NCBI GenBank assembly: GCA_034520945.1
Contig: JAXHNB010000006.1
Coordinates: 384,001 to 448,000 of the forward strand
Source of the DNA: Trueperaceae bacterium
Lineage (GTDB): Bacteria; Deinococcota; Deinococci; Deinococcales; Trueperaceae
Reading direction: 5' to 3'
Length of the DNA stretch: 64,000 nucleotides
Part shown: positions 354 through 41,100 of the stretch, piece by piece
Layout: the number at the start of each line of letters is the position of its first letter
Numbering within the stretch: position 1 is the first letter of the stretch
Notes under the pieces: generated by a model
Told to the model about the DNA's origin: nothing
Seen by the model: only the letters and a program-made list of their open reading frames with translations
Databases searched by the model: none
Translations under genes and position numbers: made by a program

Positions 354-3085
<2,732 letters not shown>

Positions 3086-3273
3086 GACTCGCACCTCCCG
3101 GGAATGCGCGATGGTACGCCCGGCCGGCCTGAGGGATCGGTCGGGCGCTTGACGGGCGGTCGGGGCGGTTCGGACGGCGTGGGGCCACGCGGACAGCGAG
3201 CCGGGGGAGGTTCACCCTGCCAACATCGCCTGAACGCGTGGTCACACGGCCCGGCGCGCCGTGGACGCGCGAC

Positions 3274-3360
3274 CGCGTCAGCGCACCGTTCGCTCCAAGA
3301 AGCCGATGAGCACCTGATTGAACGCCTCGCTGCGCTCTTCGTTGGGAAGCAGCGCCGCGT
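3274..3360. repeat. 87-bp direct repeat of the hydrolase gene 3' end (partner 3966-4052)
   Basis: Direct alignment with 2 mismatches. Confidence 0.95.
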
Positions 3361-3414
3361 GACGTCGCGCGGGGTCGCTGCGAGGATCGTCCCAGCCCTT
3401 CGTGTAGTACGATT

Positions 3415-3438
3415 GGACGTACTCTAGGAGGTACGTCC
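3415..3438. promoter_or_regulatory. Putative TA autoregulatory operator (GGACGTAC-N8-GTACGTCC)
   Basis: Inverted repeat spanning the antitoxin RBS. Confidence 0.55.
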
Positions 3439-3439
3439 C

Positions 3440-3715
3440 ATGGGTGTCTTGCCTTCCATCATTCCGATCTCGGACCTGCGCCAAGACGCTGCTCGCGTCA
3501 TCAAACGTGTCGTCGCGTCGGACGAGCCGGTCGTCATCACCCAGCGGGGGCGGGCCGCTGCCGTGCTGGTGAGCGCCGAGGCGTACGAGCGCACGCAGTA
3601 CGAGAACGACATCTTGCGCGCGCTCGCCCGCGGCGATGCGGAGCTCGCGGCGGGGCTCGGCCCCGATGCCGAGGACGTAATGGCGGAGGCGCGCACCGTG
3701 CTCGACGAAACCTAG
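3440..3715 (+). CDS. Phd/YefM family antitoxin
   Basis: IPISDLRQDAARVI...PVVITQRGRAAAVLVSAEAYE. Confidence 0.9.
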   Translation: MGVLPSIIPISDLRQDAARVIKRVVASDEPVVITQRGRAAAVLVSAEAYERTQYENDILRALARGDAELAAGLGPDAEDVMAEARTVLDET

Positions 3716-3719
3716 CGGG

Positions 3720-4001
3720 ATGCGGGTGCGCTTCACGCCGCAAGCCGCGCAGCAGTACCTGGACGCGTTGCGGAATCTCCGCACCAAGAACGCCGCCGGG
3801 GCATCGACCGTCCAACAGCGTACGGAGGCTGTGGTCGCGTTGCTCCGCGAACACCCGCACGCGGGTCACGCGATCCCGGAGTTCCCCGAGCTACCGCACC
3901 GCGAGCTCTCCGCCCCGCCGTACCGCTTGTTCTACCGCGTGGTGGACGACACGGTCTGGATCGTTCGCGTCAGCGCACCGTTCGCTCCAAGAAGCCGATG
4001 A
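3720..4001 (+). CDS. RelE/ParE family toxin; C-terminus replaced by repeat sequence
   Basis: VRFTPQA...HPHAG...PYRLFYRVVDDTVWI. The ORF runs into the hydrolase repeat at 3966. Confidence 0.8.
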   Translation: MRVRFTPQAAQQYLDALRNLRTKNAAGASTVQQRTEAVVALLREHPHAGHAIPEFPELPHRELSAPPYRLFYRVVDDTVWIVRVSAPFAPRSR

Positions 4002-4905
4002 GCACCTGATTGAACGCCTCGCTGCGCTCTTCGTTGGGCAGCAGTGCCGCGTCGCGGAGAAGCACCAGTTGCGCGTCGGGGCGGGCCAGGATGAACTCTT
4101 CGGCGTCTTCGAAGGAACTGAAGCCGGACGCGGTTCCCCACACCAGCAGCGCCGGTTGGCGGGTGGCGGGCCACAGCTCGCTCACGTCCTGGTCCAGGCT
4201 GCCGCTGACGAACGAGAAGACGATCCAGCGCGCGTCTTCCGAGCGGAGGTTGCGGTCGTACGAGGCGAGCACCTCGTCGGTGAGGCTGTCCGGGTCGGCG
4301 TAGGCGTCCAGCAGGAAGAAGCGCTGCACCTCGTCGTCGACCAGCAGGCCGGTGAACAGCTCGCTGACCACGGGGTTGGCGAATAGGTCGAAGGTGCGTT
4401 CCCGACCACCGTCCTGGGGACGGTTCAGGCTGCGGTATCCGGTCGGTGCGATGAGCGCGAGGCGGGTGACCAGGTCGGGGCGCTCGGCGGCGATGCGGAT
4501 GGCGTGCGCTGCCGACAGGCCGTTCGCGACCAGCACCGCCGGCTCGCCCACTACGTCGTCGAGGAAGGCCGTCACCTGCGCCACCAGGTCGTCCTGGGTG
4601 GTGCGCCGCTCGGGCTTCGACGAGCGGCCGAAGCCCAGCAGATCGAGGGCGTAGACGCGGTAGCCGGCGTCCGCCAGCGCGGGGGCGTTGCGGCGGTACT
4701 GGAACACGCTCGAGCCGCCGCCGATGCCGTGCACCATCACGACGGGCGGACCGTTGCCAAGGACCTCGTAACCGGTGACGAGCTCTCCGAACGGGGCCGA
4801 AGCCACGCGGGCGCCAGGGATTACGGCTTCCGGTCCGACGCCGTCGACGACGGGCACGCAGGCGGCAAGGAGGAGCAGCGACAGGGCGGTGGCGAAGGTG
4901 CGCAT
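3970..4905 (-). CDS. Alpha/beta-hydrolase fold lipoprotein
   Basis: LLLAAC lipobox; VMVHGIGGG and YALDLLGFGRS motifs. Confidence 0.85.
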   Translation of the reverse strand: MRTFATALSLLLLAACVPVVDGVGPEAVIPGARVASAPFGELVTGYEVLGNGPPVVMVHGIGGGSSVFQYRRNAPALADAGYRVYALDLLGFGRSSKPERRTTQDDLVAQVTAFLDDVVGEPAVLVANGLSAAHAIRIAAERPDLVTRLALIAPTGYRSLNRPQDGGRERTFDLFANPVVSELFTGLLVDDEVQRFFLLDAYADPDSLTDEVLASYDRNLRSEDARWIVFSFVSGSLDQDVSELWPATRQPALLVWGTASGFSSFEDAEEFILARPDAQLVLLRDAALLPNEERSEAFNQVLIGFLERTVR

Positions 4906-4990
4906 GGGAGCACGGTAGCGCGTGGGCGCGATGGGCACGAGGTGCCAACGTTCCGTTTCGGGGCCATTCGACCGCGCGGGTTGGTAGCCT

Positions 4991-5300
4991 TCACGCCCGC
5001 ACGAGGCCGAGCTCGATCGCGCGCAGCACCGCGCGGGTTCGGTCGCGGACGCCCAATTTCGACAGGATGCGGCTGACGTGGTTCTTCACGGTGCCCTCCA
5101 TCACGTCCAGCCCGCGGGCGATCTCCTTGTTGTTCCAGCCCGCCACCATCAGCCGCAGGATCTCGGTTTCGCGTTCGGTCAGTGCCTCGATCCCGTCCGT
5201 GGCCTCGTGGGTCTCGAACGGCGTTTCGGTCAGGGACAGCAGGGTCCGCACCCCTTGCCGCACCACCGTCTGGTCGTCGACGATCAGGACTGCGGATCAC
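4991..5300 (-). pseudogene. NarL/LuxR response regulator, frameshifted and internally deleted
   Basis: VLIVDDQTVVRQGVRTLL joined almost directly to the HTH LTERETEILRLMVAGWNNKEIA...TVKNHVS. Confidence 0.8.
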
Positions 5301-15981: not shown

Positions 15982-16971
15982 GTGACGCCCGTGGTGGACG
16001 CGCCCTGGGAGAAGCGCACCATCTTGCTCACCGGCGCGACGGGCTTCGTCGGCAGGGCGGTACGACCCGCTCTGGAAGCCGCCGGGTGGCACGTTCGCGG
16101 CCTCACGCGTGACGCCGCACGAGCGGCCGAGCACGCACCCGACGTGGACTGGTTCGAGGGCGACGTCGCTGACCGTGATTCGATGGCCAGCGCGCTCGAG
16201 GGCGCCCACGCGGCTCTATACCTGGTGCACGGTATCCGCGAAGGCGCCGGCTACCACGAGCGCGAGGTCGCAGCCGCCGCTGGCTTCGCCGCGGCGGCCG
16301 CCGCGGCCGGGGTCCAGCGGATCGTGTACCTGGGGGGCGTGGCGCCCACCGGTCCAGGGTCCGAGCACCTGCAGAGCCGGATCGAGGTGGGCGAGACGCT
16401 GCGGGCGGGCTCGGTGCCCACGATCGAGCTGCGCGCCAGCATGATCGTGGGTCACGGCAGCCTGAGCTGGCTCATCGTCCGCGACCTGGCGGCGCGGTTG
16501 CCGGTGATGATCCTGCCGCGCTGGCTCCGCTCGCGCACGGAGCCCGTGGCGGTCGACGACGTGGTCGTCGCGCTCGTGCGGGCGATGGACCTGCCGATCG
16601 AGGCGAACGCCTGGTTCGACGTGCCTGGACCCGAGATCCTCTCCGGCAAGGAGTTCCTCGACCGCACCGCCGTGCTGATGGGCTTGGGCGCGCCGCTGAG
16701 CATCGACGTTCCCTTCCTGAGCCCGCGCTTGTCGTCGCTGTGGATCCGGCTGGTGACGCGCGCCGACTGGTCGGTCGCCCGCGAGGTGGTGATCGGCCTC
16801 ACCGAGGACCTGCTGGCGCGCGACGACGACTTCTGGTCACGCATCGATCACCCGCAGCGCGTGAGTTTCGACGAGGCGGCGCGCCGAGCGCTGGCCGCGG
16901 AACGAGGAGCGCGACCCGCGCGGGGATTCTGGGCGCTCGTCGAGCGCGCGCGAGGGGTGGGATCACGGTGA
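15982..16971 (+). CDS. NAD(P)H-binding atypical SDR (YbjT-like)
   Basis: ILLTGATGFVG, YLVHG, IVYLGG and LRASMIVG motifs. Confidence 0.85.
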   Translation: MTPVVDAPWEKRTILLTGATGFVGRAVRPALEAAGWHVRGLTRDAARAAEHAPDVDWFEGDVADRDSMASALEGAHAALYLVHGIREGAGYHEREVAAAAGFAAAAAAAGVQRIVYLGGVAPTGPGSEHLQSRIEVGETLRAGSVPTIELRASMIVGHGSLSWLIVRDLAARLPVMILPRWLRSRTEPVAVDDVVVALVRAMDLPIEANAWFDVPGPEILSGKEFLDRTAVLMGLGAPLSIDVPFLSPRLSSLWIRLVTRADWSVAREVVIGLTEDLLARDDDFWSRIDHPQRVSFDEAARRALAAERGARPARGFWALVERARGVGSR

Positions 16972-31070: not shown

Positions 31071-31114
31071 TGGTGGGTCGTGTAGGACTCGAACCTACAA
31101 CCAGCTTATTGAGA
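31071..31114 (-). repeat. att-like copy of the tRNA-Lys 3' half
   Basis: 36 bp identical to 41025-41060, then a degenerate extension. Confidence 0.92.
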
Positions 31115-31359
31115 ACTGGCGGGTCGATAATTGAGGGCAAGGGATGACCAAGCGGGTTCAATCGGAGAGCAGTCGGGGTCTTGACGGGGATCCGGGGGAG
31201 CTAAGGCGCGTGAAGGGATGACACATGCTCACGGGCCCGCCTACAAGGTGTCAGGAAAGGTGTCGCCAATGCCGCTTGGCCCGTTGCTGCGTGCGTCTCG
31301 GTGTCGAGCTGGTCCACTGGCCCCGATTTAGCCGGCGGGCTGTGCTTTGCTTTCCCGGC

Positions 31360-31983: not shown

Positions 31984-32657
31984 GGCTAGAGTTCCTCCGC
32001 CCCCTGGGTCGAGAACGTGGCGCAAACGTAGGTGTGGAGGTCGTTGAGAAAGGTGCAAGCCTTCTCCGATTGCGACAAGGCGGCGCTGCGCAGCAGCCAT
32101 GTGGCGATGTCCATGCGGTAGGAAATCTCGAGCAAGAACCCTGCGTGCCTGAGCCGGTGTGCCTCGGCTGGGTCGAGGCTCGATGGTGGCTCACCGTTGG
32201 GTGTGAGGTAAACGAGGCACCAGTTCTGTTGATGGCGAGCTTCGAGGTAGGCGACGTAGTCCTGCAACTGCTCCGGTTGTTCTGTCGCAAAGGGCTTGTT
32301 CTCGATTGCGAGTGCCGACCGTCCGAGGTCCACAACAAGATCGAGGCTTCGCCTGTAGGCGTCGATGCGGGTCGTTGGAACCTCGTAGGCGATGCGAGCG
32401 CGTCCTTCGATCGTCAGGTGCGGACAGTTGACCGTCTGCAGAAACGACAGGAGAAGCTCGTCGCCCTGTCCGTGCGTGCCTGCAGGGTCAAGCAAGTCGC
32501 CGAGCACCTTGCTGAGCTGCAGCTCATTGGGCTGCAAGACAGCAAAGGCGTTGAGCCTTCTGGAGGTCTGCCGATCGAGGTCCGCCTGCAACTCATCGTA
32601 GAGCTTCAGCTTGCTAGCCAGCTCGTGCGTGAACGCTTGTAGGGCCCGGTCTAGGCT

Positions 32658-34118
32658 CAATGCCGTTCACTTAGTCTTGACGGGGTGGGTTTGGGCTGGT
32701 AGCTTGCGGTGTGGCGAAGCCCGGTCGTGCGAAGAAGGTGGAGCGCGAGTTCGGGGTTGCGGATTTGGTGGGGTTCGGGTTTCTGGCGGCGTTCTTTCCG
32801 CCGGTGCTGGTGGATCGGGTGTTGCGGGAGTGTGGGCGTCTGGAGCAGCGTTCGCGGCTTTTGCCCTCGCGGGTGGTGGTGTATTACGTGCTGGCGATGG
32901 GGTTGTTCGCGTCGGCGGGGTACCGGGAGTTGTTCCGGTTGTTGGTGGAGGGGTTGCGGTCGTTCGATCCGTCGGTGCCGGTGGTGATTCCGCAGAAGTC
33001 GGCGTTTTCGAAGGCGCGGGCGCGGGTGGGGTCGGAACCGCTGCAGCGCTTGTTCGAGGAGACGGTGGCGCCGATGGCGCAGCCGGAATCGCAGGGCGCG
33101 TGGTATCGCTCGTGGCGGTTGATGAGCGTGGATGGCAGCACGCTGGAGGTGCCGGACACGCCGGAGAACGCCGAGGAGTTCGGTCGTCCGGGCGTGTCGC
33201 GGGGTGAGCGGAGCGCGTACCCGCGGGTGCGGTGGGTGGCGCTCGGCGAGGTGGGCACGCGCGCCATCGTGGGCCTGTCCGCGGGGGCGTACGGGGTTTC
33301 TGAGTTGACGCTTGCGAAGCCGTTGCTGGCGCACTTGCAGCCGGGGATGTTGTGCCTGTGCGACCGGGCGTACTTCGGGTTTCACGCCTGGCAGGAGGCC
33401 CACGCGAGTGGTGCTGAACTGTTGTGGCGCCTCAAAGGCAACGCAGTGTTCCCCGTCGATAAGCGCCTGCCGGACGGGTCGTTCTTGAGTCAGGTGTTCG
33501 AAAGCCCGAACGATCGCCGCAAGGGCCTACCGGGCGTACCGGTCCGGATCCTCGAGTACGCGCTCGACGATCCCGGCAGGCCGCAGGCGGCGCAGCGGTA
33601 CCGCTTGGCGACCACGATCCTGGACCCCAAGGAGGCGCCGGCGCACGAGTTGGCTTCGCTGTACGCGAAGCGTTGGGACATCGAGATCAGCATCAAGGAG
33701 GTCAAGGCCAGCCAGGGCGGCACCCACCTGGTGCTGCGCAGCCGCAAGCCCGACGGTGTGATCCAGGAACTCTACGGCTTCGCCTGCGTCCATTACGCCA
33801 TCCGCTGGCTCCTCCACCAGGCCGCGCTCGGCAGCAACGTCGACCCCGACAGGCTCTCCTTCACGGGCGGCCTGCGCGCCATGCGACGCAAACTCTCCAG
33901 ACCCGAGAGCTTTTCCCCCCACGACCCGAACCACGCTGATTCATGAAGCGATCCACGAAATCCTTTCCGAACCGAATCCCGCACGACTCCGCTCCTGCCC
34001 CCGCGTCGTCAAGCGCGCCGTCACGTACTACCCACCCAAACGCACCAAGCACGCCAACTGGCCGCAACCCACCAAGACGCCCGACCAAGCCATCACCATC
34101 CTTAAGTGAACGGCATTG
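32658..34118 (+). mobile_element. IS4-family element
   Basis: 16-bp IR CAATGCCGTTCACTTA; 10-bp TSD GGTCTAGGCT at 32648-32657 and 34119-34128. Confidence 0.95.
32711..33946 (+). CDS. IS4-family DDE transposase
   Basis: SVDGS, CDRAY and Y..RWDIE...K motifs. Confidence 0.92.
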   Translation: MAKPGRAKKVEREFGVADLVGFGFLAAFFPPVLVDRVLRECGRLEQRSRLLPSRVVVYYVLAMGLFASAGYRELFRLLVEGLRSFDPSVPVVIPQKSAFSKARARVGSEPLQRLFEETVAPMAQPESQGAWYRSWRLMSVDGSTLEVPDTPENAEEFGRPGVSRGERSAYPRVRWVALGEVGTRAIVGLSAGAYGVSELTLAKPLLAHLQPGMLCLCDRAYFGFHAWQEAHASGAELLWRLKGNAVFPVDKRLPDGSFLSQVFESPNDRRKGLPGVPVRILEYALDDPGRPQAAQRYRLATTILDPKEAPAHELASLYAKRWDIEISIKEVKASQGGTHLVLRSRKPDGVIQELYGFACVHYAIRWLLHQAALGSNVDPDRLSFTGGLRAMRRKLSRPESFSPHDPNHADS

Positions 34119-34228
34119 GGTCTAGGCTGGGCTCAGTCATCGCTACCTCCGCCTTCTAGTGGCACTCCGTCGCGTGCGCTAGCCGGTTTCGGTGTTGGCG
34201 TCGAGGTGCGTAGACGTACAGGCCGGCG

Positions 34229-35202: not shown

Positions 35203-35250
35203 AGTGGCGTCCCGCAGGTTCTGTAACTTCCCCCACCTGGGGGAAGTTAC
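35203..35250. repeat. Left part of a 68-bp perfect palindrome (REP-like); the rest is at 36783-36802
   Basis: Removing the IS110 gives a 32-bp stem with an ACCT loop. Confidence 0.9.
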
Positions 35251-35352
35251 AGATGGGATGTAGAGGCCGCCCTCCGCCTGACGCAGTCACCCGTCGCGGG
35301 GCTGCTCTACCCTGTGGTGACGGGCTGGGTTGGCCCGGAAGGGAGGACGGCC

Positions 35353-36429
35353 ATGATCCAGGATACGTCTTCGGTTTCGCCTTGCATCGCAGGGGTCGAC
35401 ATTGGGGACGACACCTCCAGCGTGTGCATCTTGGATGCGGCATCGGGAGACGTGCTGGAGGAAACCCGCGTTCGGACGCGCGTGGCGGACGTGGAGCGGT
35501 ACTTCGCGCGGTTGGACCCATTGCGTGTCGCCATTGAGACCGGGACGCACTCGTCGTGGATCGCGCGCGCCATCAGCGACGCGGGGCAAGACGTCACGAT
35601 CGCCAACGCCGCGCACGTCCGGTTGATTCACGGCAGCAAACGCAAGAACGACCGGCTGGACGCCGAGAAACTCGGGCGCCTCCTCCGGTACGACCGGGCG
35701 TTGCTCGCGCCCATCACGCACCGGGGTCGCGCCGCGCAACTGGACCTTTCCGTTCTCCGTGCACGGGACGCGCTGGTCAGGGCGCGCACGCTCCTGATCA
35801 ACCACGTGCGCGGGGTGGTGAAGTCCTACGGGCAGCGCATCCCCAAGTGCGAGACGAGCGCGTTCTCCAAGCACGCCGCCTCGCACGTTCCCCCGGACCT
35901 GCTGCCCGCCCTGCAACCGCAGATCGAGGCGATCGCGCACCTCACAGAGCAGATCCGCAGCGCCGATCGGCGCGTAGCGGAGCTGTGCCGCACGACCCAC
36001 CCCGAGACGGCCGTCCTGACGCAAGTACACGGCGTGGCCGAAACCACCGCCTTGACGTACGTCCTCACTCTCGAAGACCCCAACAGGTTCCACCGCAGTC
36101 GCGACGTCGGCGCGTACCTCGGTCTCACACCCGGCCAACGACAATCCGGCGGCAGGGATCCCGATAGGCACATCACCAAGGCCGGCGATCGTGCGCTACG
36201 CAGGCTGCTGATTCAGTGCGCCCAACGCATCCTCGGCAAGCGCGGCATCGACAGTGACCTCAAGCGGCACGGGCAACGCATCATGCAACCCGGCACCAAG
36301 GAGGCGAAACGACGTGCCGTGGTCGCCGTCGCCCGCAAGCTCGCCATCCTCCTGCATCGACTCTGGATCACCGGCGAGGTGTACGAACCGCTCCACAACA
36401 ACCAACCGAAACCGACCCCCTTGACGTGA
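35353..36429 (+). CDS. IS110 DEDD recombinase/transposase
   Basis: GVDIG, AIETG, KNDRLDA, YLGLTP..QSGG and VAVARKL motifs. Confidence 0.95.
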   Translation: MIQDTSSVSPCIAGVDIGDDTSSVCILDAASGDVLEETRVRTRVADVERYFARLDPLRVAIETGTHSSWIARAISDAGQDVTIANAAHVRLIHGSKRKNDRLDAEKLGRLLRYDRALLAPITHRGRAAQLDLSVLRARDALVRARTLLINHVRGVVKSYGQRIPKCETSAFSKHAASHVPPDLLPALQPQIEAIAHLTEQIRSADRRVAELCRTTHPETAVLTQVHGVAETTALTYVLTLEDPNRFHRSRDVGAYLGLTPGQRQSGGRDPDRHITKAGDRALRRLLIQCAQRILGKRGIDSDLKRHGQRIMQPGTKEAKRRAVVAVARKLAILLHRLWITGEVYEPLHNNQPKPTPLT

Positions 36430-37078: not shown

Positions 37079-38209
37079 CTAGTGGAGAGCCGTGCGCGGC
37101 TGCTCGCCCGGAGCCGTCTCCGCCTCGGCTACCGCCCTAACTACATTGGCGACATGAGTGGCCACTTCGTCCAGTGGGGCGTTACGCTCGAACCGGGCGG
37201 TCACAGGACGACTGCCATTCAAGGCCGTCGTGCCGGCCTCTACCAAGAACGGCGCGTCGCGCTCCGCCAACCACTCAGCCAGTTCATTCGCAGCCAATTT
37301 CTCGCCGATTGCGCGTCGCTGGAAGACCGTCACCTCCCAACCGTACGTGCCGATCCAAGCGTCGATCGCCACCACCGCTCCCGACTGAAAGTCGATGTCG
37401 TATACCGAGGAGCCTTCCAACTCGCCGGGCACGCGCCAGTACCGCGTTTGCAGTTTGTTACTCACCTCCGCGGTCACCAGTTCCTCGACGTGCGCCCGGA
37501 GTTCATTCCCCTTCAAGCGATTCTCGCTCGCAAAGGAGTCCGCAGCGCGGAGTAAGGCCAAGACGTCATCCTCACGCTTCTTCAGGAGTTCGAGCACGGC
37601 TGGATTCATCCGGATTCCCTTTCGTAGATTCTCCATGGTCTTCAAGAAGTCGAGTGTGAACGTCACGTACTGCGCAGGCACGTCGGCCGCGTGCAAACCA
37701 AGATCCCGTCGTACGCGACCCATCAGCTGCGCGTAGGTGACCACCACAACCCCCGCTGGCACCTGCTTCTGGGGCTCGTGCAAGCACAACAGGATCAATG
37801 CCACCTGGCGCCCCTTAGCCTTACGCTCCAAGTGACCTAGGTACTCGTCCATCGGGTTGTAGACCGGCGCAAAGACCTTGTTCTCCACACCAATCAGGTG
37901 AGCATCCGCGTCGATCACCAGGTCGATCCGGTAGCCGCTGGACGTCCCCACCTCACGCTCCACCCCCAAGACCGAGACCCCCTCGAAACCCAACGGTTCC
38001 GTCAACGCCTCGAGGAACAAGCCCTCCAGGCCATGCCCCTCCGCCGGGTCCAGGAAGTACCGCAAGAGGTTGCTTGCGACGTTCTCGTAGCTCGGGTAGC
38101 CCGCCGCTTCGAGAAGCGTTGAGGGTGTGGCGCTCGCACCACGGATCCGCCCAAACTCCTCCAAGAGCGACTCAAATCGAGTAACGTCGTCCACCTCGGT
38201 AGTTTTCAT
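37079..38209 (-). CDS. PD-(D/E)XK nuclease-family protein (PDDEXK_4-like)
   Basis: ENVASNLLRYFLDP..GHGL, RIDLVI and GVENKV motifs; GGAGG RBS. Confidence 0.85.
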   Translation of the reverse strand: MKTTEVDDVTRFESLLEEFGRIRGASATPSTLLEAAGYPSYENVASNLLRYFLDPAEGHGLEGLFLEALTEPLGFEGVSVLGVEREVGTSSGYRIDLVIDADAHLIGVENKVFAPVYNPMDEYLGHLERKAKGRQVALILLCLHEPQKQVPAGVVVVTYAQLMGRVRRDLGLHAADVPAQYVTFTLDFLKTMENLRKGIRMNPAVLELLKKREDDVLALLRAADSFASENRLKGNELRAHVEELVTAEVSNKLQTRYWRVPGELEGSSVYDIDFQSGAVVAIDAWIGTYGWEVTVFQRRAIGEKLAANELAEWLAERDAPFLVEAGTTALNGSRPVTARFERNAPLDEVATHVANVVRAVAEAETAPGEQPRTALH

Positions 38210-38444: not shown

Positions 38445-39393
38445 GAGGCTGTGTGCGTACCTGCCCGCATTATGCATGAAGGGGCGGGGGTGTCGGGGCC
38501 GTCCGGTCCGGGGGTCCGGGGTGCCTTGAAGTGGTAGGATGTTCGTACTGGACGTTGTTCTTTCCGTCTCGTGCGTGTGTTTTTGGGGGTGTCGTGAAGC
38601 GTTTCCTTCCCTTCGATCCGGACCAACCATTGCTGTTGCCGCCCGACCTTCGTGAGGCCCTGCCGGACGGCCATCCGGCATTGCTGATCGACGAGCTGGT
38701 GGACCAGCTGGACTTGAGCGAGATTTACGAGGGGTTGCAGGACGGCGAGTGGGGCGGGAAGCCGGGGTTCGACCCGCGCGTGATGGTCCGCATTTGGTTG
38801 TACGCCTACCTGCTGGGGATCCGGTCGTCGCGGCAGGTGGCGAAGGCGACGGTGGAGAACATCGCGTTCCGCGTGATCGCCCGCAACCAAACGCCCGGGC
38901 ACTGGGCGTTGAACCGGTTCCGGACACGCCACCGACAGGCATTGGGGAATCTGCTGACGCAGAGTGTGCAGGTCGCTGCGAACCTGGGGCTCGTGAGCCT
39001 CGCGAACGTCGCGATCGACGGCACCAAGATCAAAGCGAACGCCAGCAAGCACAAGGCGATGAGTTACGGCCGCATGGACGCCACCGAGGAACGCTTACGG
39101 ACCGAGATCGAGGGGTTCCTTGACGAGTGCGACGAGCAGGACGAGAAGGACGAGGAGACGTACGGTCCTGAAGATGACGGCATGAGCCTGCCCGAGGGCT
39201 TGCGGGACAAGCAGGCGCGCCGCGCCAAGATTGCGCAGGCGAAACGGCAGTTGGAGGAACGCGCGAAGGACCACAAGGAACGCGAGCAACAGAAACGCCG
39301 GGACGCCGCGAAGCGAGAGGGCAAAACGTACACGCCCCGCACCAGTGCTGAGGACGCCACCCCCCAGGATTCCGACCAGATCAACTTCACCGA
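38445..39393 (+). mobile_element. IS1182-family element, 3'-truncated (transposase from 38594)
   Basis: End CTAG|GAGGCTGT; LLPPDL, GIRSSR, AIDGTKIKANAS motifs; cut at QINFTD. Confidence 0.85.
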
Positions 39394-39483
39394 TAACGTT
39401 GAGCGTGCAGTTATGTTGAGTGTCGGCGTCGATATCCGTTCTTGACGGGATTCTGCGCTGGGACACTCAACATCACGTTGTGC

Positions 39484-40494
39484 TTACAGTTGTTCGAGCC
39501 AGGTGAGGAGGTCGGGAGTCTGCTTCCATGAAGCGGTGCTGTACTCGGGGGTCTTGCCGTTTGGTGCGCAGGTTTCGATGGCTTTGCGTTTGGTGTTGAG
39601 ATCTATTTCTGCGTAGATGTTGGTTGTGCGGAGGTCCACGTGTCCGAGCCAAGCGCGGATGACGTTGATGTCGACGCCTGAATTGAGGAGATGCACGGCG
39701 CTGGTATGACGGATTGTGTGCGGTGAGATGCGTTTCCTGGCCAGTGTCGGGAGTTGCTGTGCTGCTTTGGTGGCATGCTTCTTCAGGATGTGGTCGACGC
39801 CGAAGCGGGTAATGGCCTGCTTGCGGTCGTTCAGGAATACGCGCGCGTCGCTTTGGGCGGGGATGCGGTTATCGTTGAGCAGGGTGTTCAGTGTGTCGGC
39901 AGTGGTTTGCCAGAGCGGGCAAATGCGTTCTTTGCTGCGTTTACCGTAGAGAAGTACCTGCCGGGGTCGCGTGAGCTGCAGGTCGCGAGCGCGTACGGTG
40001 GTCAGCTCCTGCACGCGGGCACCGGTATTGTAGAGGAAGAGAAGCATAGCGTGATCGCGACGTCCTGAAGGTGTGTTGCGGTCGGGTGTGGCGAGAATGG
40101 CCTGCATCTCGTTTAGTTCGAGGTAGTCGATGGTTTGAACGGGTGCTCGTTTTCGCGGCAGGGTGCAGATTCGTCGGCATTGCTCGGCGAGGGTTGGCTC
40201 TTCGGCGGCGGCGTAGTGGAAGAAGCTGCGCAGCGCGGCGAGACGGTTGTTCCTGGTGATGATCTGGTTACCGCGATCGCGTTCGAGGTGGTCGAGGAAG
40301 CCTGCGATCATGTTCACATCGAGATCGTTGAAGGTGAGCTTGACGACGGGCCGGTTCGTTCGTTGGGAGGCGTAGCGCAGCAGCAGTTTGATTGCGTCAC
40401 GGTAGCTGTGGAGGGTCTGGGCACTGAAGCCGCGGCGTGGCAGGACGAGAGTGAAGTAGCTCTGGATCAGTTCTGTCAGTCCCCTCGTCTTCAT
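39484..40494 (-). CDS. Tyrosine recombinase (RitC-like)
   Basis: YNTGARVQE, SPHTIRH and WLGH...TT..Y motifs; TRNNRLAALRSFF. Confidence 0.9.
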   Translation of the reverse strand: MKTRGLTELIQSYFTLVLPRRGFSAQTLHSYRDAIKLLLRYASQRTNRPVVKLTFNDLDVNMIAGFLDHLERDRGNQIITRNNRLAALRSFFHYAAAEEPTLAEQCRRICTLPRKRAPVQTIDYLELNEMQAILATPDRNTPSGRRDHAMLLFLYNTGARVQELTTVRARDLQLTRPRQVLLYGKRSKERICPLWQTTADTLNTLLNDNRIPAQSDARVFLNDRKQAITRFGVDHILKKHATKAAQQLPTLARKRISPHTIRHTSAVHLLNSGVDINVIRAWLGHVDLRTTNIYAEIDLNTKRKAIETCAPNGKTPEYSTASWKQTPDLLTWLEQL

Positions 40495-40697
40495 GGCGCA
40501 CATCGGGAAGGCGGAGCGCAATTGTCCTCGAAGCGGCGACCGGCCTGAACCAGCGTGTCGCTGGTGATCGTGGCGTAGTACTGGGTGGTGGTGATGTCCT
40601 TATGCCCCATGTAGGTAGCCAGTAGGGGCAGGAGGTTCTGAACATCGCGGCCTTGTTCGTACCATCGGGCGATCCTGTGCGCGGCAAACGTGTGACG
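40491..40697 (-). pseudogene. RitB-like recombinase C-terminal fragment
   Basis: RHTFAAHRIARWY..G......LP.LATYMGH.....TQYY; ATGA overlap with the ritC-like gene. Confidence 0.8.
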
Positions 40698-40698
40698 G

Positions 40699-40718
40699 TT
40701 ATCCCGCGCGCGGGATAA
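40699..40718. repeat. Perfect 20-bp palindrome TTATCCCGCGCGCGGGATAA
   Basis: Read directly; joins two integrase fragments. Confidence 0.95.
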
Positions 40719-40719
40719 G

Positions 40720-40920
40720 CGGCATTCCTGCGCGACCCTGATGCTGGAGAACGGCGCGCACCCGAAGATCGTCGCCGAACGCCTCGGGCACAGCTCCACA
40801 AAGTTGACGCTGGACACGTACTCGCACGTCACGCCGACCGTGCAGGACGCCGCGACGAAGCAACTCGGCGGCCTTGTCTATGCCACCCCTGACAGTGAGG
40901 AGGTGAGGCCCGTAAACTGA
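40720..40920 (+). pseudogene. Phage-type tyrosine integrase C-terminal fragment
   Basis: Manual translation: RHSCATLMLENGAHPKIVAERLGHSSTKLTLDTYSHV; points toward the tRNA. Confidence 0.88.
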
Positions 40921-41024
40921 GCCCGGAAGGTGTGCGCACACTATGCGCACACAAAGGCCGATGCGCGGCCTCCGGCAAGAGACTCCGCGCATCGACGTTC
41001 CAGCGTCCTGGACGGACTTTCTGG

Positions 41025-41100
41025 TGGTGGGTCGTGTAGGACTCGAACCTACAACCAGCTGATTAAGAGTCAGCGGCTCTACCAATTGAGCTAACGACCC
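41025..41100 (-). tRNA. tRNA-Lys(CTT)
   Basis: GGGTCGTTAGCTCAATTGGTAGAGCCGCTGACT-CTT-AATCAGCTGGTTGTAGGTTCGAGTCCTACACGACCCACCA; 76 nt, CCA encoded. Confidence 0.97.

Follow-up and report, generated by a model that had tools for sequence, protein, structure and literature searches.

At positions 40699-40718 of a 64,000-nucleotide stretch of contig JAXHNB010000006.1 from a Trueperaceae bacterium (assembly GCA_034520945.1; the whole stretch is hereafter called the window), a perfect 20-bp palindrome, TTATCCCGCGCGCGGGATAA, joins the C-terminal tails of two different tyrosine recombinase genes lying on opposite strands (..GTGTGACGG TTATCCCGCGCGCGGGATAA GCGGCATTCC..; Table 1). Read outward on the plus strand, its GGGATAA is followed by a single G and then by CGG CAT TCC, and this reading, RHSCATLMLENGAHPKIVAERLGHSSTKLTLDTYSHV.., runs through the tail RHSCATLMLENG.. 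(40720-40917) to a stop at 40918-40920. Read outward on the minus strand, GGGATAA is followed by a single C and then by CGT CAC ACG, and the reading, RHTFAAHRIARWYEQGRDVQNLLPLLATYMGHKDITTTQYY.., runs through the tail RHTFAAHRIARWYEQG.. (40697-40494) to a stop at 40493-40491. Each side of the palindrome thus presents one base, the Arg-His codons and a tyrosine recombinase C-terminal tail, with the two codon pairs symmetric about the dyad. The match of both fragments to the Pfam Phage_integrase profile starts at position 132/133 of 172, from which it follows that the two genes are cut at the homologous codon. An earlier note, made from the letters alone, had described the palindrome with its outward GGGATAA, single base and Arg-His codons, together with a cut of both genes at the same catalytic codon, and re-reading of the sequence and the profile matches bore out both statements.

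The left fragment is the end of a RitB gene, as had been noted, with 48% identity (tblastn) to residues 246-291 of the RitB of a complete RIT element at another locus (L037, described below) and a Phage_integrase match (E 0.0097, under the curated cut-off) that starts at profile position 133. Its stop overlaps the start of the following RitC gene as ATGA at 40491-40494 of the minus strand. The RitC product matches Phage_integrase with an E-value of 1e-32, contains SAM-like domains as well and shares 40% identity with L037 RitC (residues 9-331). The adjoining inverted-repeat end has the arms AACGTTG, 10 bp, TATGTTG, with an inverted copy near the RitC stop, and the 17-bp spacing of these arms is the same as in the GGGATAA-type ends discussed below. 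Judged from the identities to L037 and from the other arms, the RitB tail and RitC would belong to a resident RIT of a different lineage. Next to it, the alignment of the truncated IS1182-family transposase with an intact 446-aa relative (BLASTP) stops at NFTD, subject residue 270, so that this second lineage seems to sit at a conserved motif of another mobile element's gene. The right fragment is the end of the integrase of a tRNA-Lys-linked island, also as had been noted: in G006, a genome of the same genus, an intact orthologous integrase adjoins the same tRNA-Lys, with 83% DNA identity to the tail in the window, and the homology (..TACGACCT|GCGGCAC..) begins exactly at 40719, the G of G-CGG-CA. 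G006 is in this way the uninterrupted version that the earlier note had proposed to look for in relatives. A repeat of the tRNA-Lys 3′ end (family D5; 87% identical to 41025-41079 along 55 nt, of which the first 36 match fully) marks the far border, and therefore an island of about 10 kb is delimited. An integrase beside a tRNA gene and a far-border repeat of its 3′ end, the hallmarks of tRNA-linked islands, are both found; with 66 codons of the integrase left, the sequence is consistent with the proposal in the earlier note that the island has been immobilised.

Table 1. Features around the palindrome (window coordinates)
Feature	Position	Strand	Description
Palindrome	40699..40718	no strand	Inverted 7-bp arms TTATCCC / GGGATAA flanking GCGCGC; probable orphan RIT end-site
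Left crossover hexamer (putative)	40693..40698	-	TGACGG on +, CCGTCA on -; base preceding the Arg codon, CGT, and bases 1 and 2 of the RitB His codon
Right crossover hexamer (putative)	40719..40724	+	GCGGCA; last Leu-codon base, CGG and CA of the integrase His codon
RitB C-terminal tail	40491..40697	-	68 codons from R-H plus stop
RitC-type tyrosine recombinase	39487..40494	-	Complete, now orphan; 335 codons plus stop
Integrase C-terminal tail of tRNA-linked island	40720..40920	+	66 codons plus stop; Pfam match from profile position 132
tRNA-Lys(CTT)	41025..41100	-	Island attachment site; ARAGORN
Direct repeat of tRNA-Lys 3′ end	31071..31125	no strand	Far island border; repeat family D5
Resident RIT inverted-repeat end	39395..39483	no strand	End of the putative owner of RitB/RitC; read from sequence
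IS1182-family transposase, N-terminal part	38531..39394	+	Pfam DUF772; cut right after ..NFTD

The observation itself is confirmed. Logan contigs from two runs of one sample, which is probably the source of this DNA, cover 40350-41020 in one piece with 0 differences and a depth of 22-25, a support that is independent of the assembler and not of the sample. Other contigs of the same runs have the palindrome alone in common and then continue into other RH.. tails, and one low-depth contig (run X2) carries a relative's uninterrupted integrase, ..GFRLYDL|RH.., with the boundary as in the window; runs X3 and X6 hold small shares of the stretch only. In a DNA search of 60 relatives, G005 and G006 alone were useful. 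G005, of the same genus and also surveyed below as locus L017, has the left RitB tail (83% identity, with indels) followed by the identical palindrome, which is joined there to a different integrase tail (RHTFA..) by another tRNA gene, and lacks RitC on the left. In an unrelated sediment metagenome (run X3), a contig matching 40500-40619 contains the RitB tail of the window with 1 difference in 120 nt and leads leftward into a close match of the G005 left flank, not into RitC. Within the 3.47-Mb, 10-contig genome that the window comes from (97% complete), neither a second copy of the 12-mer palindrome half, of the RitB/RitC stretch or of the integrase tail was found, nor any RitA homologue or further RitB, and consequently no active partner remains in it. 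A RitA search of 60 genomes of the family, 2 of them from the genus of the window, gave one full-length distant match (G080, 33% identity).

A bare 20-bp palindrome is weak evidence, since palindromes of at least 20 bp appeared in 19 of 100 first-order Markov simulations of the window, whose G+C content is 68%; the context is decisive. Chance does not account for the placement of the palindrome between homologous cut points, nor for the fact that the same 20-mer recurs in such a context elsewhere. Within the window the 20-mer occurs once, even when up to 3 mismatches are allowed. A second perfect 20-bp palindrome, the GC-rich GCCGCGGCGGCCGCCGCGGC at 16288-16307, has no link to the finding and lies within chance expectation.

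Searching with the 18-base core returned 33 stretches in species-representative genomes and 104 in metagenomes, 80 of the latter being retrieved; together with the window, 115 occurrences were classified by script. In 68 of the 115, further GGGATAA motifs, here called an array, lie on one side of the palindrome. An in-frame RH faces the array in 58 of these 68, comprising 49 recombinase tails with the full RH..(L/M)GH..Y pattern and 9 open frames starting with RH in which the pattern is incomplete or cut by the contig end; something else stands opposite the array in 7 cases, and 3 arrays lie at a contig end. The other occurrences are four clear two-tail sites (the window, L018, L061 and L107), five two-tail sites with one doubtful tail (L022, L024, L047, L112 and L129), one head-palindrome-tail arrangement (L025), 12 that are mixed or at contig ends and 25 with neither array nor tail. 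These 25 were set aside as unrelated, many of them lacking the outer T/A of the 20-mer and lying in unrelated genes or in other repeats. To judge by record titles, the array-bearing genome loci belong to Trueperaceae, Myxococcota-type lineages, Gemmatimonadota, Limnocylindrales, Thermoanaerobaculia and Acidobacteriota, which we take to represent several phyla.

The arrays lead into RIT genes. Their direction was towards the 3′ end of RitC in 24 sides and towards the 5′ end of RitA in 20, the flank was too short in another 20, and 4 arrays had enough flank and no rit gene; all 44 arrays with at least 700 nt of flank and a Rit match run into one of these two gene ends. The tips of the repeats meet the hexamer and palindrome in 56 cases, a recombinase head in 5 and a contig end in 1, and all five tips that point away from the palindrome (L029, L037, L048, L088 and L107) abut heads ending in ..H-x-[L/F/C]-R-H. 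RitB-like tails (..RWYR..) make up 26 of the 87 unique ones, others being RitC, integron/Xer-like or phage-type tails. Their tail-side hexamer is xCGxCA, a consensus that is partly built in because these tails were chosen for their RH start. The earlier note had postulated a site-specific, possibly RIT-like element, with ends ..CGGGATAA and the Arg-His codons as its target, and had proposed a genome search for elements with such ends; they do exist and are found inserted at precisely these codons, as the 58 of 68 RH tails, the 44 arrays entering RitA or RitC and the five heads indicate.

Complete elements give the anatomy in full. At L048, a tRNA gene is followed by an integrase head (..FHFHDL-AGGCA), by TTATCCC, 10 bp, TTATCCC and a third inverted motif (1592, 1609 and 1679), by three recombinase genes, by the same three motifs mirrored (4912, 4970 and 4987), and then by TGCCGG, the palindrome (5000-5019), GCGGCA and the integrase tail RHTFASYLAMSG. 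Its junctions can be written ..FHFHDL-RH / element / palindrome / RHTFASYLAMSG, with differing hexamers at head and tail. The element at L037 has the same layout with its three genes in the opposite orientation, both elements bearing three GGGATAA motifs per inverted repeat; its junctions read ..IRFHDL-RH / element / palindrome / RHTFASHLVMKG, with the hexamer GCGCCA at both. The L037 genes are RitA (2778-4019), RitB (1900-2778, abutting RitA at 2778) and RitC (845-1837), and their order is the same in L048. A derivative of about 380 bp at L029 (4450-4840) has the same ends and palindrome, no genes, and an Xer/integron-type gene as its host (..CHTF-RH / derivative / palindrome / RHSFATHLIEAG, that is, RH-SFATHLIEAG, with CCGGCA at both junctions), and by this structure it would be a non-autonomous RIT resembling a miniature inverted-repeat transposable element.

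These palindrome-bearing elements are identified as RIT elements because of their three Xer-like genes and the kinship of L037 RitA with that of the C. necator plasmid pHG1, a classic RIT-rich replicon (43.7% identity over 94% of the length, E 3e-63, at 8 places in the record); identity to the A. aromaticum EbN1 plasmid is 42.7%. In addition to the ritA-ritB-ritC trio and this kinship, they show terminal inverted repeats with a palindrome at one end. Short overlaps of ATGA type between rit genes are seen in the RitB and RitC of the window, and the annotated pHG1 trios overlap by 4 bp. NCBIfam holds no Rit-specific model, and RitA, RitB and RitC all score as Xer-like under the equivalog cut-offs. 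L037 RitA has about 120 residues before its SAM-like domain (121-201) and RitC about 30 beyond the catalytic domain, lengths that fit putative additional domains of the kind described for RITs. The many insertion sites and the several copies in one metagenome-assembled genome (MAG), such as L028 and L044 in one and L022, L032 and L033 in another, are comparative evidence for a putative mobility of these elements.

The hexamers beside the palindrome vary. The one between repeat and palindrome resembles the R-H codons though it lies outside any gene, and it differs among copies of one lineage, being GCGACA in L028 and GAGGCA in L044 of one MAG and varying likewise between L058/L076 and L106. Rearranged forms are also found. 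At L107, the head and tail of one integrase surround a RIT cut down to the RitC tail and one repeat, which looks like a deletion from the end-site to the R-H codons of the element's own RitC. On pHG1 (NC_005241.1; L154 6380-6560, L159 3560-3760), a complete RIT lies between two inverted RitA-RitB-RitC(head) copies, both heads ending ..TPHTL-RH at the repeat tips with no palindrome, the reciprocal two-heads form. A search of pHG1 for the two-tail partner with up to 1 mismatch gave 0 matches, the pattern being derived from the guessed arms of that RIT, a guess that may be wrong. As separate observations, the RitB of an otherwise complete RIT at L031 (839-1174) lacks residues 79-245, the deletion ending exactly at its own R-H codons, and the right end of the RIT at L018 (6415-6560) reads GGCATAA, 10 bp, GGCATTA, CGCCTC, TTATGCC, GTCAGC, GGCATAA, GACTGG, beyond which comes the reverse complement of an IS66-type transposase (..AVPLDNNQS).

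Altogether, the palindrome in the window is probably the leftover site of a RIT of the GGGATAA-arm lineage, whose target is the Arg-His codons, and it would join two integrase tails after a deletion that removed the element and both heads. From the junctions we infer the chemistry of the crossover, a circular intermediate with two sites and the order of events. Integration would proceed by a tyrosine recombinase crossover within 6-7 bp, namely the last Leu base, the Arg codon and two His bases, possibly with the third His base (C/T). The target would be the H-x-L-R-H box of other tyrosine recombinase genes, whether RitB or RitC of other RITs, integron/Xer-like genes or phage-type integrases. 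After insertion the order would be head, hexamer, repeat, RitABC in either orientation, repeat, inverted hexamer, palindrome, hexamer and tail, an order that explains why the palindrome always faces a gene tail. As a constant unit always found on the tail side, the palindrome does not look like two ends simply joined, and the crossover would fall outside its centre, in the adjoining 6-7 bp.

The mobile unit would include the palindrome, so that on circularisation the repeat, inverted hexamer, palindrome, hexamer and second repeat make one long dyad. Such a circle would offer two equivalent attachment cores, each with a hexamer between a GGGATAA arm and a TTATCCC arm. Whichever of the cores took part, crossover of the hexamer with the target R-H codons would leave the head beside a repeat tip and the tail beside the palindrome, and the equivalence of the cores would account both for the two orientations (24:20) and for the constant tail-side palindrome. 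The unused core (repeat tip, inverted hexamer and left half of the palindrome) would stay complete after integration and be able to recombine with further R-H boxes. Depending on position and orientation, the products would be two tails joined by the palindrome, with the element lost or inverted, or an element between two heads; both kinds exist, the former in the window, L018, L061 and L107 and the latter on pHG1. For the window, a GGGATAA-type RIT would first have entered the island integrase, or else the RitB of the older RIT residing in the IS1182 transposase gene, after which its resident site would have recombined with the Arg-His codons of the other gene. The element body, the resident RitB head with RitA, the rest of the insertion sequence (IS) and the integrase head would then have been lost, leaving RitC and the RitB tail, the palindrome and the integrase tail. 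Deletion fits better than inversion because the genome has no RitA homologue, and since no RIT of this kind is left in it, the site is now inert.

In a broader form of this proposal, RITs of the lineage would be parasites of mobile elements that use catalytic Arg-His codons, those of their own rit genes included, as the place of crossover, with a two-faced 20-bp core and two attachment sites, a view towards which we lean slightly. If true, it accounts for the two orientations, the tail-side palindrome, the travelling R-H-like hexamer and the frequent welding of tails and heads, and it would provide this transposon family, the movement of which was never reproduced, with its first defined attachment sites and with a mechanism that can be tested.

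Several points weigh against these proposals. At L025 (about 4980-5040), the palindrome and one more R-H hexamer stand between a head ending ..FHDLRH and the tail as a frame-shifting insertion of 26 bp without an element body, and L088 (about 60-140) bears a similar scar in which one repeat arm is kept; both look like deletions between direct TTATCCC arms and not like a simple crossover at inverted hexamers. In two metagenome contigs (L083/L084 and L089/L090), a RIT has the palindrome and an outward RitB tail at both ends, a form that the model reaches only through one more exchange, with an orphan palindrome as partner. None of the 115 occurrences shows the junction predicted for the circle, in which the palindrome has an array on either side. 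A candidate circle, L113/L114 on one metagenome contig of 3,487 nt, was rejected: its termini are inverted, the first 100 nt being the reverse complement of the last 100 nt, not direct duplicates, and this divergent RIT, with the same palindrome and the non-RH hexamer CCTCTC, is probably an assembly fold-back through the inverted repeats. As for the target, of the seven arrays with something else opposite, four carry non-RH hexamers (CTGGCA and GAGCCA, two each) and three show decayed RH. The hexamer between repeat and palindrome equals the tail-side one in 16 of 57 non-redundant pairs, against 8.4 expected by shuffling (maximum 17 in 5,000 shuffles), a modest agreement that the model allows and does not predict. 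The tail class, moreover, is partly circular, as it is defined in part by its RH start; the five heads, and the 49 tails in which the box II pattern is complete, are less circular figures. All loci were found through the exact palindrome, and the survey is therefore silent on RITs with other end-sites. Several such RITs occupy other genes, namely IS1182 in the window and IS66 in L018, and published ones lie in radC and IS66 (PMC3414803). To our knowledge, movement of a RIT has never been seen in the laboratory so far.

Among other explanations, the one that survives best is the route proposed in the earlier note, in which two copies inserted independently, in RitB and in the island integrase, in opposite orientation, and palindrome-palindrome recombination then removed or inverted the interval, the symmetric GCGCGC centre permitting either alignment. 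This route, which we consider less likely, yields exactly the observed junction; nested RitB insertions are common (L027, L028, L031, L038, L039 and L044 show RitB tail, palindrome and RIT end), and the several copies per genome that it requires do occur, as described above. Nevertheless, it demands two insertions plus a crossover at the centre of the palindrome that no observation supports. Every position that varies, and so records history, is found in the hexamers alongside, and the reciprocal product of this route, again with arrays on both sides, is absent from the 115 occurrences, though a deletion would lose that product anyway. One inserted copy whose end-site recombined with the R-H codons of a second gene gives the same product in fewer events, and with these data the two routes cannot be told apart.

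A relic formed elsewhere is a rather unlikely variant, in which the RitB tail and palindrome half-site were inherited or imported and the right partner was later swapped in trans for the tRNA-Lys integrase tail. The G005 arrangement, with its own integrase tail and tRNA and without RitC, and the nearly identical RitB tail of the X3 contig beside a G005-like left flank speak for it, and they suggest that tails may have been swapped later or struck independently. Still, independent insertions in related resident RITs would give the same pattern, and the variant calls for the same RIT chemistry, which makes it a version of the leftover-site reading and not an alternative to it. An ordinary illegitimate deletion between diverged homologous recombinase genes, with a palindromic filler made by chance or repair, is very improbable: long palindromes are indeed not rare at this base composition, but the identical 20-mer stands at the same codon in dozens of unrelated genes from several phyla, beside RIT ends. 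Hardly any weight can be given to an assembly fold-back or chimeric join, given that, although palindromes and inverted repeats do break or misjoin assemblies, many matches lie less than 200 nt from contig ends and L113/L114 resembles such an artefact, the independent contig set of two runs bridges 40350-41020 without differences, the arms outside the 20 bp are two different genes, and the same type of junction occurs in a relative's polished long-read MAG (L017). Neither accidental deletion nor fold-back is adequate, because the palindrome junction recurs in G005 and at other loci.

The practical consequences for this genome are small: what is left of the tRNA-Lys island is decayed and immobile, and the palindrome is a scar that no longer acts, the relic of a known element family. 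The island also contains an IS4-family element, an IS110-family transposase, two PD-(D/E)XK genes and a truncated transposase. The PD-(D/E)XK genes (PDDEXK_4) lie at 31989-32660 and 37082-38209 on the minus strand, one of them adjoining the IS4-family element (32644-34132, with 30-nt inverted repeats), and perfect inverted repeats of 20 nt, at 35203 and 36783, bracket the IS110-family transposase gene (35314-36426).

Beyond this genome, RITs are widespread, and their target choice and mechanism are open questions in the literature examined. For one lineage, about 60 junctions define a binding arm, a 6-7-bp crossover and an Arg-His-codon target. The account explains annotation puzzles such as back-to-back truncated 'integrase' fragments and the 'mazes' of rit genes on plasmids, the two-heads form explaining the published recombinase-gene 'maze' of pHG1. 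A possible ecological role is the disabling of the integrases of islands, integrons, phages and rival RITs, which can freeze them and cause adjacent deletions. Taken with the IS1182 NFTD and IS66 LDNN sites, the Arg-His target would, if true, suggest that RIT lineages differ in the conserved motif at which they insert, each choosing one in the enzyme gene of another element.

Many of these features can be recognised in described systems. IS elements can transpose intramolecularly, a resident end attacking a second target on the same replicon so that the interval is removed or flipped and one end is left at the joint. Compared with such adjacent deletions, the RIT chemistry would be a conservative site-specific tyrosine recombination at a defined codon pair, and the recombination of this pair would be why both breakpoints fall at the same codon of two homologous genes. 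Described RITs are ritA-ritB-ritC trios of about 3.5 kb with ATGA overlaps, inverted repeats and an 'overlapping palindromic sequence' at the ritC side; they occur in multiple copies per genome and, on pHG1, in 'complex combinations' with truncated rit genes, and insertions are reported in IS66 tnpA, the Tn6049 transposase and radC (PMC3414803; PMC2864759). RitA is described with an additional N-terminal domain and RitC with a C-terminal extension (PMC8138268). The elements of the present survey have the same Xer-like trio, ATGA overlaps, inverted repeats, palindrome at one end and habit of insertion in the genes of other mobile elements, and the IS66 insertion at L018 agrees with the published CH34 RIT that inactivates IS66 tnpA. 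The passages on RITs in those reports give no target rule, crossover site or function of the palindrome (PMC3414803; PMC2864759), and Table 1 of a 2023 overview lists target specificity and movement of RITs as 'NT', for not tested (PMC10214605). For the GGGATAA lineage, the arms, the 20-bp unit, the 6-7-bp crossover and the R-H target can be read from the junctions, the window being a relic.

In Bifidobacterium longum, mobile integrase cassettes comprise three integrase genes side by side, together with a long inverted repeat and, at one end, a conserved palindrome of 20 bp named 'P'; the two parts of a gene of another mobile element flank the cassette, which is described as 'sandwiched by two IS3-type IS' (PMC2430713). 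Their palindrome differs (TTAAACCGACATCGGTTTAA as printed), the host element is IS3 and not an integrase gene, and the sections of that paper on the cassettes offer no model of the site's role (PMC2430713). A deletion of 10-50 kb beside the three-integrase cassette arose within 1,000 generations of culture (PMC2430713), which may be taken as published support for RIT-linked deletions. Tn554, the strand-biased circularizing elements (SE) and GInt are site-specific multi-recombinase transposons that carry a 6-bp former flank onward (PMC10214605), in likeness to the hexamer between repeat and palindrome that varies between copies of the RIT lineage. Their gene sets differ (TnpABC; IntA/Tfp/IntB/Srap), and the overview's descriptions mention for them neither an end palindrome nor targeting of catalytic codons (PMC10214605). 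Full-text searches, with supplements and Ricker et al. (2013) lying outside them, found no statement of RITs inserting at recombinase R-H codons. RIT elements and a 20-bp end palindrome have already been published, while the target rule and the anatomy of the site appear to be new.

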